The notes below the pieces were generated by a model. It saw only the letters and a program-made list of their open reading frames with translations, made no database searches and was not told the DNA's origin. 64,000 nt of DNA from assembly GCA_034530875.2 (NCBI GenBank), contig JAVRCJ020000008.1, positions 64,001-128,000 on the forward strand. Reading direction: 5' to 3'. The position numbers were made by a program, and so were the translations under genes. Shown here in pieces: positions 37,871-50,752 of the stretch (within the stretch, counting starts at the first letter, position 1; the number at the start of each line of letters is the position of its first letter). The DNA is from Nostoc sp. DedSLP01 (GTDB lineage Bacteria; Cyanobacteriota; Cyanobacteriia; Cyanobacteriales; Nostocaceae).

Positions 37871-39556
37871 ATGTCGGAAGAAGATCTCCGTGCCGCAAGG
37901 CTGGAAAAAGTAAACCAGCTCAAGCAGTTAGGCACTAATCCCTACGCCTATCGTTGGGAATCCACCCATCACGCAGCGCAGTTGCAAGAACAATTTGCCG
38001 ATTTAGCCAGCGGCGAAGAAGTTGATTTAGAAGTTGCTATAGCCGGACGCATTATGGCGCGTCGCGTTTTTGGTAAATTGGCTTTCTTCACCTTACAAGA
38101 TGAAACCGGCACGATTCAGCTCTATTTGGAGAAAAATCGCATCCAAGAAGGTATGGCAGATATTGATGCCGATGCATTCAATCATTTGAAACAGCTGACA
38201 GATGCAGGTGACATCCTGGGAGCCAAAGGTAGTATTAAACGGACTGAAAAGGGCGAGTTATCTGTCTACGTCAAACAATACACCATCCTGACAAAATCTC
38301 TGTTGCCCCTACCCGACAAGTGGCATGGATTAACGGATGTTGCCAAGCGCTACCGTCAGCGCTACGTTGACTTGATTGTTAACCCCGAAGTGCGGCAAAC
38401 TTTCCGCCGCCGCGCCCAAATCACTGCTGGGATTCGTCGCTATTTGGAACAGCGGGATTTTCTCGAAATTGAAACGCCTGTTTTGCAAAGTGAAGCTGGG
38501 GGTGCAGATGCACGTCCGTTTATCACTTACCACAACACTTTAGAAATGGAGTTGTATCTGCGAATTGCTACAGAACTCCATCTGAAGCGATTAATTGTAG
38601 GTGGTTTTGAAAAGGTGTTTGAATTAGGGCGAATTTTCCGCAATGAGGGAATTTCGACTCGACACAATCCCGAATTTACAACTATTGAAATCTACCAAGC
38701 CTACGCCGACTACAACGATATGATGGCGCTAACAGAAGGGATTATTACCACTGTTGCCCAAGAGGTACTCGGCACGCTGCAAATTACTTACCAAGGTGAA
38801 TCTATAGATTTAACACCACCTTGGCGGCGGGTGACAATGCACGATTTAGTTAAAGAGATTACAGGTTTAGATTTCAATTCTTTCCAAACTTTAGAAGAAG
38901 CAAAAACAGCAAGTAAAAATGCTGGAATTCCTGATGTAGATGAAGCCCAATCAATTGGTAAGTTACTAAATTTGGCTTTTGAAGAGAAAGTAGAAGCCAA
39001 TTTAATTCAACCTACCTTTGTAATTGATTATCCAGTAGAAATTTCGCCCTTAGCAAAACCCCACCGTTCTCAACCTGGTTTGGTAGAACGATTTGAGTTA
39101 TTTATAGTAGGGCGAGAAACTGGCAATAGCTTCTCAGAACTTACCGATGCGATCGACCAAAGAGAACGTTTAGAAGCGCAAGCTGCTAGAAAAGCTGCTG
39201 GCGATTTAGAAGCGCAGGGCGTAGATGAAGACTTTTTGGCAGCTTTGGAATATGGTATGCCGCCTACTGGTGGTTTAGGAATTGGAATCGATCGCTTAGT
39301 AATGTTACTAACAGATTCTCCCAGTATTAGGGATGTAATTGCCTTCCCCCTACTCAAGCCCGAAGGCAGCGTTATTAAGCAATTTACCCACGATGAAAAA
39401 ACTCAAACACTGACTATTGAATTTGATAGTGGAAGTGTTTACGAGTATTTCAAAGTACCTTCCAGTATCAAGGAAGGCTTAGATAATGCACCGTCTAAAG
39501 GTCAATATTTTAACAAGTTTATTAAGGGGAAATTTAAGTTTGAACAACTGAGTTGA
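37871..39556 (+). CDS. lysS: lysyl-tRNA synthetase (class II) with a C-terminal KTSC domain
   Basis: YRQRY.DL, FRNEG...HNPEF and GLGIGIDR; tail [14 protein letters not shown]...[11 protein letters not shown]. Confidence 0.97.
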
Positions 39557-42550: not shown

Positions 42551-43420
42551 TTAATTCAAGAATACTGAACCGTTTCGCTCAATTCTTAAAGCACTTCTCC
42601 CTTGTGCTGCATCAGCAGTTTCGTTAAATCTAACTTCTAAGTTTGCTGCTTGTGATGAGGTTTGTGCTTGTGATGAAGTTTGTGGAGTTGCTAACAGTTG
42701 TCCCCCGTCTCCTCGTTGGAATGTCACCGTTACTGGTACGGTTAGCCCTCGGAGTGTGACATCAGATTTACCGCGTAACAATCGGGGTGCGGTATCACCG
42801 ATGACTTGGTAAGTTACATCAGCCGCAGTGTCATTTACCAGTCTGATATTAACTGCATTATTTGTAATTGCGATCGTAGCACTAGGGGTTTGTCGTGGCT
42901 CTTGTGGAGTGCTAGAAGTATCTGGGGTAACCGATCCTGGAGTTCCTGGTATCGCATTTGGTTCTGATGATGTCGAAGGCTGCGAAGTATTTCCAGAACG
43001 ATTATAGGGCGGTTCATTCCGAATACTAGGATTGGGATTAACTGCTGGAGAAGTGTTTTGTGCAGGTGCTTCACCGCCTACACCCAATCTGATTTGTTCT
43101 TGTGATGGATTTGCCTGGTTTTGTGATGTAGTCGTAGGGACAGGAAGAAGCCCTTGTGCTGCTAGCCTTTGGGTTAGTGCATTCGGAGGGCATCCTTCTG
43201 GGACAACAACACGAGAGTTATGTGGTTCTTCGTAGAAAATACGAGGACAAGGGTTAACCTGGGGAGTAGAACGGTTAACTTGAGAAGTAGAAGGGTTAAC
43301 TTGGGAAGGATATTGTTGTGCTAGTGATTGGGGAATTGCTGGTAGGGTAATTAGTAGCCCTCCGCATATAGCGCCCAAGAATTCAGCAGATTTGCGAAAA
43401 ATTTGAGAATTATTAACCAT
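42551..43420 (-). CDS. secreted Pro/Gln-rich hypothetical protein
   Basis: Signal peptide; NPCPRIFYEEPHN...GCPPN motif; beta-rich C-terminal domain. Confidence 0.8.
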   Translation of the reverse strand: MVNNSQIFRKSAEFLGAICGGLLITLPAIPQSLAQQYPSQVNPSTSQVNRSTPQVNPCPRIFYEEPHNSRVVVPEGCPPNALTQRLAAQGLLPVPTTTSQNQANPSQEQIRLGVGGEAPAQNTSPAVNPNPSIRNEPPYNRSGNTSQPSTSSEPNAIPGTPGSVTPDTSSTPQEPRQTPSATIAITNNAVNIRLVNDTAADVTYQVIGDTAPRLLRGKSDVTLRGLTVPVTVTFQRGDGGQLLATPQTSSQAQTSSQAANLEVRFNETADAAQGRSALRIERNGSVFLN

Positions 43421-45740: not shown

Positions 45741-48653
45741 GTGAATATTTTGAAAATTTCCATTCAGACTATTATTGGTATCTCCCTAATGAGATTCAAA
45801 ATCAATGCAAAAATTATTGGAATTTGTTTATTATATTCAGCAATTATCTCTAAAGCTATATTAATTCAACTATCTGCGATCGCTGTAGATGTAAAAAGTC
45901 AACATAGTCTTGATTTAAAAAGTAGTAATTATCAAAAAATAGATAATTTTCAAAGTAAAGTACTTTTAAGACAAACCTTAAAAAATGCCAAATATAGCTC
46001 TGAAAATCCAAAACCTTTACCCAGATTTACCATAGCTGACGTCATCCCAATTGAAGAGTATAAAGTACAACCTCCTAAACCAGATGATGCAGAACAGCAA
46101 GAAACTCAACCAGATAAAACTCAACCCAATACATCAACACAACAAATACTTATACAAAAATTACGTCGTTCCAAAAATCAACAACAAGCACAAAAACAAA
46201 TAATTCTAGATGCCTTAACATTTAGCGCTAATAGATATCCTTGGATTGTTAACCCTACAGATAATCTTACTTTTCAAAATCAATTATTTAAACCAAATTT
46301 TGAAGAAGATTATATAGATACAAATTTAGATATAAAATTTTCTGGCGAAAGTCAGATTATTGATAAATTTACTTATGCTAAATTTCCTAAATCTGACCAG
46401 TTTTATTGGGTACTTGACAATAATAGGATAGTAGTTGAAACCAGAGGCTCCCAGGCAGGGATCATTTATCAAGGAAGAGACACTAATACTTTTATCACCC
46501 AAAATGTTACCTCACAACAGGCATTTTGGGGATTACAATCTCTGTTTGCTATACCTACAGATTTTCAAAATTTAACTGGTGAAGTTGCTACTGATGATAA
46601 TTTTTCTATAATTTCAATAGCAGGACAATTAATAAATCCTGAAGGCATACCTGCTGGCAGAGTTATTATTAATAGTGGGGTTGACAAAAACAACCCTAAT
46701 GTCACAATTCTCAAAAATCCTACTCCGATTATTGGTAGCGGCTCAACTTTAAGCGTTGAGGGCGGGCAAGCTTTATTTCAATTGTTAGATACTACCAATG
46801 CTCCCAAGATTCTGCAAAGCTTTCCCACAACAAACATGCAACCTCTGCTAGATGATGGAAACGTCAGACTTCAAGAGGGCGAAATTATTCCTAAAAGTGC
46901 CTTAGAAGCTACTGGAATCTTTTGGGGAAATATATTAACCGGAGAAGGTTTTGGTTTTACTGCTCCTGTCACTTCCTTTCCAGGTATCAAGGTCGCTCAA
47001 CTGAGGAAATTTGATAACTATGATTTGTTAAATGTAGCAGTCAATCCTTTTCTTTCTCAACCTGAAAAAGACTTTCATTATCTTAATTCTTTAATGTGGG
47101 TATCTTTAGGAAGAAGAGATCCTGAATTTAAAACACTATCTCAAACTCAAGATAGCTCTGATTGGCACAGACTCTATGCTAGCCGTCCTCATAACCGCAC
47201 CTTAATCCAATACGACCCAGTAGATATTAAGGCTACTTACTCTAACATTTTTTCTGCCCCAGGCATATCTCTAACTACTAATTTTAGCGATCTTAGTATT
47301 GATTCTATTCAATCAGTGAATTCTACATTAGGTTTGCTATTGGGCGGAGTTTTTGAAGCTATTAAAGTTAAGAATATTCAAAACGGTTTAGAAGAAGCTA
47401 GAGAAAAATTTAAGAATGGAGAAGGTTTTACACCTTTAAATACACCTGCTACAGCTGTTCAAAGGAGACAAATTAATAATAGACTGAATCGCACTTTAGC
47501 TTATGGTAATTCAGGCAGCGGACTCGAGCAAGTATCTGGAACTTATACACTTCCCAGTAAAATTACTCCTAACAAGTCGAGTATCTTGCAAGTAAGAACC
47601 GGAAATCACAAGCGAGCAGTTCAGTTTCTGGAAAGAAGTATTTCTATCTTAGATGAAGGTGATACATTCTTTTCTGACCTCAGACTCTCTAATGAAAGGT
47701 TTGGCCCTCTCACTTTTATCGGTATCCCAATTCCATTAAATAAGACTTCTATCGATCCTATCAATACTATCAATGAATCTTCTGCTGTAGAAGTAATTTT
47801 GACAAATTCCCAAGGTCAACAATTTGTACAACAATATAGTTCAGCCGATAATACGATAGTACCGCTGCAAGTCCGGTCATTTGATATAGCGTTCGATTAC
47901 ATGGAACTCACCAGAGTTGATAAAATTGGTATTAATTTTAATAGCTTTAATGGTTATCTATCTTTACCAACAGTCGAATTGTTAGCAGCAGGTTCTTCTG
48001 GCGATTTTAACTATACTGCCAATTTGGGAATGTGGTTTAATGTAGATGCTAATTCAGCACCAGGTGTTAATAATAATAATTTAGGAATAGAAGAACCAAC
48101 TTTAGGAATTTATACTAATATTCTGCTCAATTATATTAAAAATGATGTCCGCCTAGATTCTAATAAAAAACCTGTCGCTGTTAATACTCATATACCATAC
48201 TTGAGAATTGACTGGAACAGTGCTTCTAATAAAAATAATCCTTTTTCGACTTTTTTAAGTTATTTCTTTCAACATCAAGAAAGAAATTTTGGTTTCTCCT
48301 TAGCTCCTGGTATCGCTTATATTGAAGGTAATAGCAATGGTGAATTTTTAGGTCTTGTGAATGGAGAGTTTGGTACTAGCCTTGGTTTAAATTTAAAGGG
48401 AAATCTAGAGATTGGCAAAAACTTATTTTTTGAATTTCAGGGGTTGCAAAGAATCAGTAAAAGAATTTCTCTTGGTGCTTATTTAAGAAATTATGCTATA
48501 AATAATGTCGGTTTAAGCAGCCGAGTTTCTGGCTTAAATTATGGATTAATTTTTAGACACACTTTCCCTGACAATGGTGTGTTTATAGAAAGCCAAATTG
48601 GTACGGGTGAAAATGGATTTGACCTTAAATTTCAAGGTGGGTATCGATTTTAA
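45741..48653 (+). CDS. large exported hypothetical protein with a probable C-terminal outer-membrane beta-barrel (start possibly ATG 45789)
   Basis: Signal-like N-terminus, Q/P-rich linker, amphipathic strands ending FDLKFQGGYRF. Confidence 0.75.
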   Translation: MNILKISIQTIIGISLMRFKINAKIIGICLLYSAIISKAILIQLSAIAVDVKSQHSLDLKSSNYQKIDNFQSKVLLRQTLKNAKYSSENPKPLPRFTIADVIPIEEYKVQPPKPDDAEQQETQPDKTQPNTSTQQILIQKLRRSKNQQQAQKQIILDALTFSANRYPWIVNPTDNLTFQNQLFKPNFEEDYIDTNLDIKFSGESQIIDKFTYAKFPKSDQFYWVLDNNRIVVETRGSQAGIIYQGRDTNTFITQNVTSQQAFWGLQSLFAIPTDFQNLTGEVATDDNFSIISIAGQLINPEGIPAGRVIINSGVDKNNPNVTILKNPTPIIGSGSTLSVEGGQALFQLLDTTNAPKILQSFPTTNMQPLLDDGNVRLQEGEIIPKSALEATGIFWGNILTGEGFGFTAPVTSFPGIKVAQLRKFDNYDLLNVAVNPFLSQPEKDFHYLNSLMWVSLGRRDPEFKTLSQTQDSSDWHRLYASRPHNRTLIQYDPVDIKATYSNIFSAPGISLTTNFSDLSIDSIQSVNSTLGLLLGGVFEAIKVKNIQNGLEEAREKFKNGEGFTPLNTPATAVQRRQINNRLNRTLAYGNSGSGLEQVSGTYTLPSKITPNKSSILQVRTGNHKRAVQFLERSISILDEGDTFFSDLRLSNERFGPLTFIGIPIPLNKTSIDPINTINESSAVEVILTNSQGQQFVQQYSSADNTIVPLQVRSFDIAFDYMELTRVDKIGINFNSFNGYLSLPTVELLAAGSSGDFNYTANLGMWFNVDANSAPGVNNNNLGIEEPTLGIYTNILLNYIKNDVRLDSNKKPVAVNTHIPYLRIDWNSASNKNNPFSTFLSYFFQHQERNFGFSLAPGIAYIEGNSNGEFLGLVNGEFGTSLGLNLKGNLEIGKNLFFEFQGLQRISKRISLGAYLRNYAINNVGLSSRVSGLNYGLIFRHTFPDNGVFIESQIGTGENGFDLKFQGGYRF

Positions 48654-48722
48654 TTCCATTGCCAAGATACCCAAGCTTTTGAAAAATTCGGGTATCTCAG
48701 CTTTTTAATTTATAAAATATAT

Positions 48723-49154
48723 CTAATCTAAAGCACCCAAGCCATTATTACCAGCACCTGCTCGAATTATACTTGTCACATCTTGAAGCGAACTAGTATT
48801 ATTTAATAAATTTGCTGCTGTATTCAGGAATGAATTTTGGCTAGAAAGTGTAGTACTCTTAACTATTCCTGGGCTGATAGTTAGACTAGTAATGGTTTCC
48901 TCATTTTGACCTGCTACTCCTCCATAGGTAGGTATAATTTTTACACCTCCTTCAAAATAAGAGCCAGAAGGTAAAGTGACCTCGCCACTAACGCTCAGAA
49001 AAGTGCCAGAAGGTCTAATCAGAGTGACAGCACCGATAACAGTAGCTTGTTGTGCGTTTGCTGGTGCTGCTAAAAAATTTGTGACATTAACTAAACTCAA
49101 TAAACAGATACTTTGATGAATAATTATAGACAATTTGTTAGATAAACTATTCAT
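48723..49154 (-). CDS. secreted hypothetical protein (paralogue 1)
   Basis: Signal peptide ending AAPANA; AGGAG RBS; tail IIRAGAGNNGLGALD. Confidence 0.85.
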   Translation of the reverse strand: MNSLSNKLSIIIHQSICLLSLVNVTNFLAAPANAQQATVIGAVTLIRPSGTFLSVSGEVTLPSGSYFEGGVKIIPTYGGVAGQNEETITSLTISPGIVKSTTLSSQNSFLNTAANLLNNTSSLQDVTSIIRAGAGNNGLGALD

Positions 49155-49717
49155 TATTTATAAACTCCTGAATCTCTGGCGCTACTTTTTACTTGACCAT
49201 GTAAAATCAACCTCAACTAATAAAAGTGGAGGTAGAATCTTTCTTTATATTTGTTTTATTGCTTTTGGCAGATAAAAATATAGAACCCTTGGTATGAAAT
49301 TTTTGTTAATAATGGACATGTTTTGGGTTCGTATTGTTACACAAGCTCTCTATTTGCCATTGGATAGGAGTTTCAGGATTTATAATTTATATTGATGTTA
49401 TTAGAGTTATGTAAACGAATGGTGAGGACGCGTATAGTAACACCGACGCTTTTATTCTATTTTCGAGGAATTAAAAGAAAAAATTTAATTTTTTATTGCA
49501 ATATCTAATACTAAATGGCAACATACAGCTGTGCTAACTTATACAAAACCCATGCTAAAAGATTCCCGACTTCTTAATAGAAAATCGGGAATCTAAGCCA
49601 CAAAATAAATATAGGGAACAGACATAGCAATGCTATTTCTCTTCCCTATCATGTATAGATTTATTCAACTGTTGTGTCAGTTAAAAGTTAGAAGTACTTC
49701 CAGGGCAAAAATTTAGT

Positions 49718-50140
49718 CTATTCTAAACCACCTAAACCATTAACGCCAGCACCAGCACGAATGATAGCTGCTTGTGCGCCAATGTCGCCAGCCGCTGCGT
49801 CTAAGGCTGCTGCTGCTGAAGTTACGAAAGGATTGCTGCTAGCAGTGAGCAAACTGGTGTTAGGTGTGCCTGGAGATATAGTTAAATCTGCTACTACTTC
49901 ATCGTCGGCTCCTGATGTGCCAGTGTATGTAGGTGTAATTTTTAGGTCGCTTTCGTAGTAGGCATTTTGGGGCACAGTTAATTCACCACTAACACTGATA
50001 GAAGCACCAGAAGCTCTAACAAGAGTTACAGCACCACGAGCTGCGGATTGACCTGCACTTGCTGGCGCAGCCAGGATATTACCAACGCTAACTAAACCTA
50101 AAAGACAAATGCTTCCTTTAACGATCGCAGAGATTTTCAT
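49718..50140 (-). CDS. secreted hypothetical protein (paralogue 2)
   Basis: Signal peptide ending AAPASA; GAGGAG RBS; tail IIRAGAGVNGLGGLE. Confidence 0.85.
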   Translation of the reverse strand: MKISAIVKGSICLLGLVSVGNILAAPASAGQSAARGAVTLVRASGASISVSGELTVPQNAYYESDLKITPTYTGTSGADDEVVADLTISPGTPNTSLLTASSNPFVTSAAAALDAAAGDIGAQAAIIRAGAGVNGLGGLE

Positions 50141-50752
50141 GATTAACAAACTCCTCGTGTTGTTTATCTTTGCGTATTCAATATAACTATTAAATTCAAG
50201 AAAAATCTCAGTGAGAATACTGGATTTTATAAAAATTTCAGCGGTAATAAATTAAAAAAATTAATCAATAAAATTGCTAGTGTGGCTTCAAGAAGAGCAT
50301 CAATATTCTAAAAGATAGAGCTATAGCAGACTTTGTACTTATTGAATATATGTATAGCGCTTGTGGTAATGCTTACAACAACTTATATTGAAAAAAACTA
50401 AATCTAAAAAAACTGCGAGTAAAGCTTTAGACTGCTTGCAACAACAAAAATCTATGTAAAATACATTTAATAATTAGCCCATAAAAATGCCCGTGTCATA
50501 TATTTGCTTAATCTTGAGTCGATTTTCATGAATAATGTGCTGTGGAGAAGGATTTGAATTCTGAGAGATAACGTTGTCGCCTAACATCGCTGTGCTATCA
50601 TACGAAACATTTAAAAGATTGCACCAATTAAAACCAGCTAGAAAACGTAGCTATAACTAACTTTTGTTTCAGGTTACGGTTAAGCACCATTTAACTTACT
50701 ATGTTTAATATCCCCAAGTTAAATGGCTATCTCTGCCTAGCATTAGCTCATT

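Follow-up and report, generated by a model that had tools for sequence, protein, structure and literature searches.

The closest described relative of the locus reported here is the cyanobacterial tubular (CT) pilus of Microcystis aeruginosa PCC 7806SL, described in 2025, whose pilin MrpC (BH695_0841; PDB 9BTQ) is encoded in the cluster BH695_0836-0841 (PMC12397347). This pilus is a hollow tube of ~110 Å (11 nm) in which a helix-turn-helix and a C-terminal loop form an axial hook; the report leaves its assembly open and describes the genetic tools for Microcystis as poor (PMC12397347). We analyzed a 64,000-nucleotide stretch of Nostoc sp. DedSLP01 (contig JAVRCJ020000008.1, positions 64,001 to 128,000; hereafter the window), in which positions 45,741 to 50,140 hold a large gene on the forward strand and, converging on it from the reverse strand, two paralogous small genes that we call S1 and S2. 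In our judgment this is likely a minimal, divergent CT pilus locus, with S2 as the likely major and S1 as a likely minor pilin, both probably exported and anchored by the large protein, a predicted barrel. That the locus builds a filament seems probable. An earlier note on this DNA had proposed an undescribed surface-fibre system with two paralogous subunits; the fibre with major and minor subunits is supported, whereas "undescribed" has to be withdrawn, given the relationship to the CT pilus by fold, profile and barrel homology.

The likeness to the Microcystis system takes in the fold and length of the pilin, its signal peptide, the pairing of a pilin gene with a pilin-like gene (S2 and S1), a homologous outer-membrane "cell surface protein/porin", restriction to cyanobacteria, and a terminal L[DE] common to the Nostoc pilins and the classic-type CT pilins that we retrieved. 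The differences are a pilin identity of ~21%, a barrel that falls in a separate clade, orthologs that are induced in hormogonia, and a layout of three convergent genes without an adjacent O-GlcNAc transferase, FkbM methyltransferase or adhesin. Two genes of glycosyltransferase family 41 (GT41) occur in this genome, unlinked to the locus. Nostoc is absent from the list of ~105 homologues in Supplementary Data 1 of PMC12397347, which was purged of sequences over 400 aa, whereas the relatives considered here include pilins of 2-4 repeats. Because the adjacent transferase, FkbM and adhesin genes are missing and Nostoc is not on that list, the locus is filed as a variant and not under the six-gene cluster type of Microcystis.

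Other fibre systems resemble the locus by analogy only, although the earlier note had drawn the comparison with curli, Fap and chaperone-usher pili. Chaperone-usher pili (PapC/FimD) also have Sec-exported major and minor subunits and a dedicated outer-membrane barrel, and an ATP-independent logic may be common to both; the Nostoc subunit is, however, predicted to consist of hairpins and helices, not of an immunoglobulin fold with a donor strand. No usher or chaperone domain was matched by Pfam or NCBIfam in the barrel or the pilins, and no chaperone-like neighbour is conserved. In curli (CsgA/B/G) and Fap (FapB/C/F), too, a channel is accompanied by secreted subunits that form a major-minor pair of paralogs, and a nucleator-like role for the minor subunit is conceivable, whereas the Nostoc proteins have no Pfam match and S2 is modelled as a confident, globular, non-repeat fold with helices. 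Curli and Fap have Gln/Asn repeat units and an oligomeric channel, whereas the Nostoc locus has no such repeats and one large barrel.

Small, putatively secreted proteins related to the CT pilin

S1 (48723-49154, reverse strand; 143 aa) and S2 (49718-50140, reverse strand; 140 aa) align from end to end, with 69 of 139 positions identical (50%; E 9e-40). Judged by eye, each begins with a basic and then a hydrophobic segment followed by AxA, a signal-peptide pattern that is kept across the pilin alignment and that also satisfies a crude rule. The sole Cys of each lies within the signal peptide, leaving the mature proteins free of Cys; these are 21-26% Ser plus Thr. Their C-termini are IIRAGAGNNGLGALD in S1 and IIRAGAGVNGLGGLE in S2. 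At E<=1, neither these two proteins nor the large one matched any Pfam or NCBIfam family. A PDB sequence search gave no significant match for S2 or for the large protein, and the ESM Atlas gave only leads below 0.9. The earlier note, which recognized no family for any of the three, had already placed the three open reading frames (ORFs) and described the small proteins as AxA-cleaved paralogs with Cys-free mature parts; the frames and these features were reproduced.

An AlphaFold2 model of mature S2, built from 113 sequences, has a predicted local distance difference test (pLDDT) score of 90 and consists of two beta-hairpins and a helix-turn-helix (strands 2-12, 18-29, 38-44 and 53-60; helices 75-86 and 91-101). 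Its top Foldseek match is the CT pilin structure 9BTQ (E 0.45, TM 0.52), which is also the top match by VIA among 48,161 chains (Z 6.2, root-mean-square deviation [rmsd] 4.4 Å, 101 residues aligned, 21% identity), the next chain reaching Z 3.1. Both hairpins and both helices that form the tube interfaces are kept in order across 98-101 residues. When a 34-sequence profile of Nostoc-type pilins, with the classic pilins left out, was aligned with the classic CT pilin profile, the match scored 96.2% (E 2.7e-9, 98 columns), and S1 and S2 each outscored all 200 of 200 shuffles against the classic profile. Classic pilins adjoin barrel homologues in three of the relatives' loci (L046-L048), and one of them matches 9BTQ at E 4e-18.

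We assign S2 as the likely major and S1 as the likely minor subunit because the region upstream of S2 is conserved, strong hairpins lie past the S2 stop, and the codon adaptation of S2 exceeds that of S1. The upstream region (50141..50250, reverse strand), which holds the ribosome site and a likely promoter, averages 80% identity (110 nt compared in 42 loci), whereas the region upstream of S1 averages 60%. Just past the S2 stop are two stem-loops (49561..49649, reverse strand; -45.4 kcal/mol, z -6.35, reached by 0 of 200 shuffles), single-copy in the genome, which likely end or stabilize the S2 mRNA and thereby limit S1. By codon adaptation S2 ranks 1038 and S1 5627 among 5771 ORFs, a weak test with a two-gene seed. 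S2 is the ortholog of Npun_F5190 of Nostoc punctiforme (56% identity over the first 96 aa) and S1 is the positional counterpart of Npun_F5191; in 37 of the 42 loci that have two pilins, the gene next to the barrel is the one more similar to S1.

The earlier note had also stressed a conserved Gly-rich tail and had suggested that it serves sorting or polymerization. Only part of that tail, helix 2 and the terminal [LM][DE], is family-wide; the full tail is not. The terminal motif is found in 152 of 154 distinct pilin ORFs, as against 63 of the 5771 ORFs of this genome. Among relatives there are also tandem pilins of 2-4 repeats, up to 545 aa, and the 11 internal repeats examined keep helix 2 whereas none has an L[DE] end; from this we infer that helix 2 is structural and that the last two residues matter at a free end, perhaps as an export signal or an end latch. 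A role for the tail in polymerization fits the published CT structure, while sorting stays conjectural with some support, from the [LM][DE] ends and from a pair of adhesin-like proteins that belong to another sequence family, stand beside barrels and both end in PVLD. Genome-wide, 35 of 162 signal-peptide proteins (crude rule) end in [LMIV][DE], and no further obvious substrate was seen among them. Two small acidic signal-peptide proteins with the ends VD and ID directly follow a barrel fragment (L025:239-643 and 741-1088); neither these nor the adhesins gained a pilin score on the broad profile, and we rejected them as pilins.

The pilins of the relatives vary in form. Tandem genes of 2-4 domains (255-545 aa) stand beside the barrel at L040:13077-14711, L041:11940-13529, L042:6160-7761 and L043:10492-13793, some with Cys-containing loop insertions or a very acidic sequence; those of L041 and L042 also adjoin large RTX/cadherin-type genes. 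At L032:12130-12783 and in L086, L093, L105 and L116 the pilins measure 210-260 aa, their hairpins being separated by a Pro/Gly-rich insertion with two Cys; three or four such genes form an array, and in five such loci a TPR-GT41 glycosyltransferase (distant GT41) comes after the pilins. At L044:10748-11707 and L045:10617-11594, both of one genus, the barrel faces a secreted protein of 319-325 aa that does not end in L[DE]. Its first hairpin gives a weak match to the pilin profile (11.5-11.8 bits, slightly higher than 200 shuffles), and the protein may be a pilin that has diverged strongly and gained a large insert. Pilin fragments at L051:6248-6511 and L130:4546-4920 and a shortened barrel match at L051:7624-10371 adjoin transposase genes, which suggests that some classic CT loci are decaying.

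A predicted outer-membrane barrel kept beside the pilins

The large gene can be read from an in-frame GTG (45741-48653, forward strand; 970 aa), and its most likely start is the ATG at 45789 (45789..48653; 954 aa), the form that databases carry. Its AlphaFold2 model (78 sequences; pLDDT 79, predicted template modelling score 0.67) has a disordered N-terminus of 135 residues and is otherwise mostly beta. All matches from Foldseek and VIA were barrels of the outer membrane, the best with Z 13.4 (rmsd 4.5 Å, 262 aligned), so that the barrel-like character guessed in the earlier note is supported by the kind of structural model that it had asked for. Clear hydropathy alternation is seen in only some of the predicted strands. 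We sought a specific family for this barrel and rejected each candidate: ushers, LptD, TonB receptors and porins all match at 5-12% identity and none stands out. The protein ends in GGYRF, and a terminal Phe is present in 95 of 97 long barrel homologues, as against 275 of the 5771 ORFs of this genome. The Omp85/BAM machinery recognizes such a C-terminal Phe end of outer-membrane barrels.

The barrel is homologous to the "cell surface protein/porin" of CT clusters, matching DWQ56_22785 of M. aeruginosa with 32% identity over 860 aa (E 4e-132). That gene lies five locus-tag steps from DWQ56_22810, a pilin listed in PMC12397347, a spacing equal to that from BH695_0836 to 0841. A search of 1.84 billion representatives with the barrel profile yielded 78 clusters, all strong matches or fragments, and no remote relatives among them. 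In a FastTree phylogeny of 26 representatives of 100 barrels (thinned at 72% identity, midpoint root), the Microcystis type falls in a clade of 5 and the barrel of the window in a clade of 21. A barrel fragment on a 3-kb contig labelled non-cyanobacterial (L129) is likely mis-binned or mis-named. With the pilin and barrel relationships taken together, we are highly confident that these proteins are homologous to the CT pilin and the CT barrel; because the two homologies are independent, a chance likeness is very unlikely.

The two gene families travel together, as the earlier note had predicted. The large gene was found in 26 of 401 genomes across the phylum and the small family, by a narrow profile, in 15, all of them within the 26; in the DNA around the large gene, a small-family gene was nearby in 20 of the 26 and fragments were present in two more. 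A broader profile, run on 401 genomes of the order, gave 36 genomes with pilins and 43 with barrels; 32 carried both, where ~4 would be expected under independence, with the caution that kin are not independent. Among 76 named barrel loci, 68 have a pilin within 7 kb. The eight others are mostly short or cut contigs, and two (L071 and L119) have full flanks yet no match. The barrel is the sole gene kept next to the pilins in all clades, the flanks being otherwise unrelated, and no conserved chaperone or ATPase gene was found in the neighbourhoods of the relatives. One genome (G154) has a pilin fragment, a transferase, an FkbM gene, an adhesin-like gene and the barrel in a row. In the clade of the window the system is reduced to pilin and barrel, which points to the latter as the core machine.

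Within the barrel we noticed strands that resemble strand 2 of the pilin. Residues 291-302 (970-aa numbering; 46611..46646, forward strand), a candidate template for the first pilin, are the best match to the strand-2 12-mer among 779 positions, and 1 of 5000 column shuffles reaches the score; a second, weaker segment, residues 596-607 (47526..47561, forward strand), is reached by 17 of 5000. The test drew on 10 divergent loci, took as its score the best of 779 positions, and was chosen post hoc, after the match had been seen. In 131 barrel homologues tested, the best pilin-profile match, to the hairpin, falls at residues 275-299 in 104 of the 125 that have a match, and the mean score is 1.3 bits against -2.9 for reversed sequences; hhalign gives the pilin and strand 291-302 a probability of 3% only (E 0.014). 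Over the 10 loci the barrel strand co-varied with the pilin of the same locus (z 2.25, p 0.014), but this was rejected as evidence because other positions of the 779 reach z 3. It is a tentative idea, drawn from these strands, that they might act as a template for the pilin.

Each gene is single-copy in the genome, the S1/S2 pair excepted; all three reading frames are intact, and close homologues come from Nostoc. Where the barrel gene and S1 converge, a stem-loop (48661..48701, reverse strand; -21 kcal/mol, z -4.1, 0 of 200 shuffles) separates their stop codons and is likely a terminator; a scan for sigma-70 promoters and terminators performed at chance level. The flanking histidine kinase, polyphosphate kinase-like and TPR genes vary from relative to relative and lie outside the module. 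At 42551-43420 the window encodes a Pro/Ser/Thr-rich signal-peptide protein of 289 aa, without a Pfam or credible NCBIfam match; of 27 loci from close relatives, 4 have this protein nearby. Further away, a lysyl-tRNA synthetase-like ORF (37871-39556) carries an extra C-terminal tail of ~65 aa, which may resemble a KTSC domain.

Expression of the orthologs in Nostoc punctiforme

Over 0-18 h of hormogonium development, RNA-seq values for Npun_F5190, the ortholog of S2, were 5,562, 85,999, 251,901, 313,193 and 233,346, a 56-fold rise to a peak four times that of pilA, whose values were 97 and, at its peak, 72,877 (PMC6495340). Npun_F5190 is among the most strongly transcribed genes of hormogonia. 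The barrel gene Npun_R5192 was co-induced from 5 to 138, early and at ~1/2000 of the pilin transcript level, while Npun_F5191 stayed flat at 4-9 (PMC6495340 and its supplement). Induction of Npun_F5190 needs sigJ and sigC and little sigF (PMC6495340). Like the type IV pilin PilA (Npun_F0676), Npun_F5190 would be a hormogonium-induced, very highly transcribed filament subunit; unlike PilA, it lacks a prepilin-type N-terminus and remains high in the sigF mutant, where pilA collapses (PMC6495340).

At the protein level, published Npun_R5192 peptides match the barrel of the window, and in 0.2-µm-filtered hormogonium medium the intensity-based absolute quantification (iBAQ) values were 3.5e9 for F5190, 3.2e6 for the barrel, 1.4e9 for OprB and 1.4e10 for ApcB, with an intact C-terminal F5190 peptide in one of six medium samples (PMC12188702 and its supplement). 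In a second data set, R5192 was recorded both in cells and in the medium and F5191 in cells, and the supplement rows do not list F5190 (PMC11890772); in co-culture with Agrobacterium, the Npun_F5191 protein dropped (log2 -2.6) and the barrel did so less (log2 -0.85) (PMC11890772 supplement).

PilA is found in septal rings of hormogonia, and peritrichous pili are known as well (review PMC4390875); a CT-type fibre is a fair candidate for the latter. A full-text literature search, with subscription journals mostly outside its coverage, gave no match to the Npun locus tags, returned only PMC12397347 and a review on MrpC or the CT pilus, and found no paper linking a hormogonium gene to CT pili. The tags are also absent from the supplements of PMC12416817.

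A proposed assembly route and its alternatives

The route that we propose begins with Sec, by which all three proteins would cross the inner membrane. Omp85/BAM would insert the barrel, engaging the strand that ends in Phe, and the pilins would then pass the barrel, perhaps recognized by their free L[DE] C-terminus, with the pilin-like strands of the barrel seeding the first subunits. By homology to 9BTQ, each subunit would join its neighbour laterally, through antiparallel pairing of beta-sheets, to give a hollow and rigid tube whose successive turns are latched by the helix pair together with the C-terminal loop. The pilin and barrel genes may be switched on in hormogonium development, as their N. 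punctiforme orthologs are; the likely use of the fibre is then in motile filaments, for aggregation, attachment or the colonization of a host, rather than for buoyancy. We lean towards the barrel being the export and assembly platform for the pilins. A fuller version is doubtful: the CT pilin would be the top hormogonium transcript and would form the all-over fimbriae reported since 1980 and unexplained by septal PilA, while a barrel of a new kind, free of chaperone and ATP, would read the free L[DE] end and seed the tube with its pilin-mimicking strands.

Several observations weigh against a CT pilus at this locus. The VIA score of 6.2 is middling, inside the range reached by unrelated models, and the broad pilin profile did not match 9BTQ directly in the PDB at E<=10; the CT pilin link therefore rests on the agreement of several tests. 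No tblastn match to an O-GlcNAc transferase, FkbM or beta-rich adhesin was found in the 64-kb window. Four of the 36 pilin genomes lack a barrel (one an 84%-complete assembly, three with weak partial matches), and 11 of the 43 barrel genomes lack a pilin match; five of these 11 belong to one genus, and three are fragments. The codon adaptation of S2 is only moderate, generic porins score above ushers against the barrel, and the expression evidence comes from the N. punctiforme orthologs and not from this genome. Phycobiliproteins are also found in the medium, where ApcB at an iBAQ of 1.4e10 means that lysis contributes to the medium proteome, and F5190 was detected there by two short peptides and was absent from one of six samples (PMC12188702).

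Alternatively, the proteins may be CT-pilin homologues that build some other surface polymer, such as a thin fibre, a ribbon or a hormogonium coat, in place of an 11-nm tube. The ~21% identity and the 4.4 Å rmsd to 9BTQ fit that idea, as do the lack of linked glycosylation genes and the 2-4-repeat forms, which constrain geometry differently; the ordered retention of the tube-interface hairpins and helices and the same barrel family accompanying the pilins speak for a tube, and we consider another polymer improbable. A more drastic reading, that the small proteins resemble MrpC by chance and are soluble, secreted and without kinship to it, could draw on the missing direct profile match and on a Foldseek E value of just 0.45, and has largely been refuted by the profile-profile alignment, the shuffle controls and the independent barrel homology; it is very improbable. 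Hardly any weight goes to the locus being a silent relic in this strain: related loci (L051 and L130) do hold pilin fragments, yet here the frames are intact, the region upstream of S2 is conserved and the N. punctiforme orthologs are expressed.

The role of the barrel is a further matter, for it may be an anchor, a receptor or a passive pore, with the pilins leaving elsewhere or diffusing and assembling by themselves. Pfam matched no usher or chaperone domain in the barrel, nor a POTRA/Omp85 domain of the kind found in the TpsB proteins of two-partner secretion; the best fold matches of the barrel are generic and porin-like, with ushers lower (FimD Z 9.1, rmsd 6.6 Å, 283 aligned; PapC Z 8.6) and FhaC (Z 11.2) and TamA (Z 10.7) level with unrelated barrels. 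The conserved neighbours include neither a chaperone nor an ATPase gene, and in one genus any pilin that accompanies the barrel is very divergent at best. Its standing as the only gene kept beside the pilins, the platform-like timing and low level of its induction (PMC6495340 supplement), and the pilin-like strands inside it argue the other way, and we think it unlikely that the barrel is only an anchor, receptor or pore.

If a minimal CT pilus locus is the correct reading, CT-type pilins are not confined to bloom formers of the plankton but also occur in Nostoc, Komarekiella, Moorena, Fischerella, Phormidium and others. N. punctiforme is a genetically tractable host in which deletion mutants are routine, and the assembly of CT pili would become testable there. 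The reading also offers an identity for a "hypothetical protein" transcribed above pilA in hormogonia, the plant-infecting filaments, and the locus offers a candidate for their peritrichous pili.

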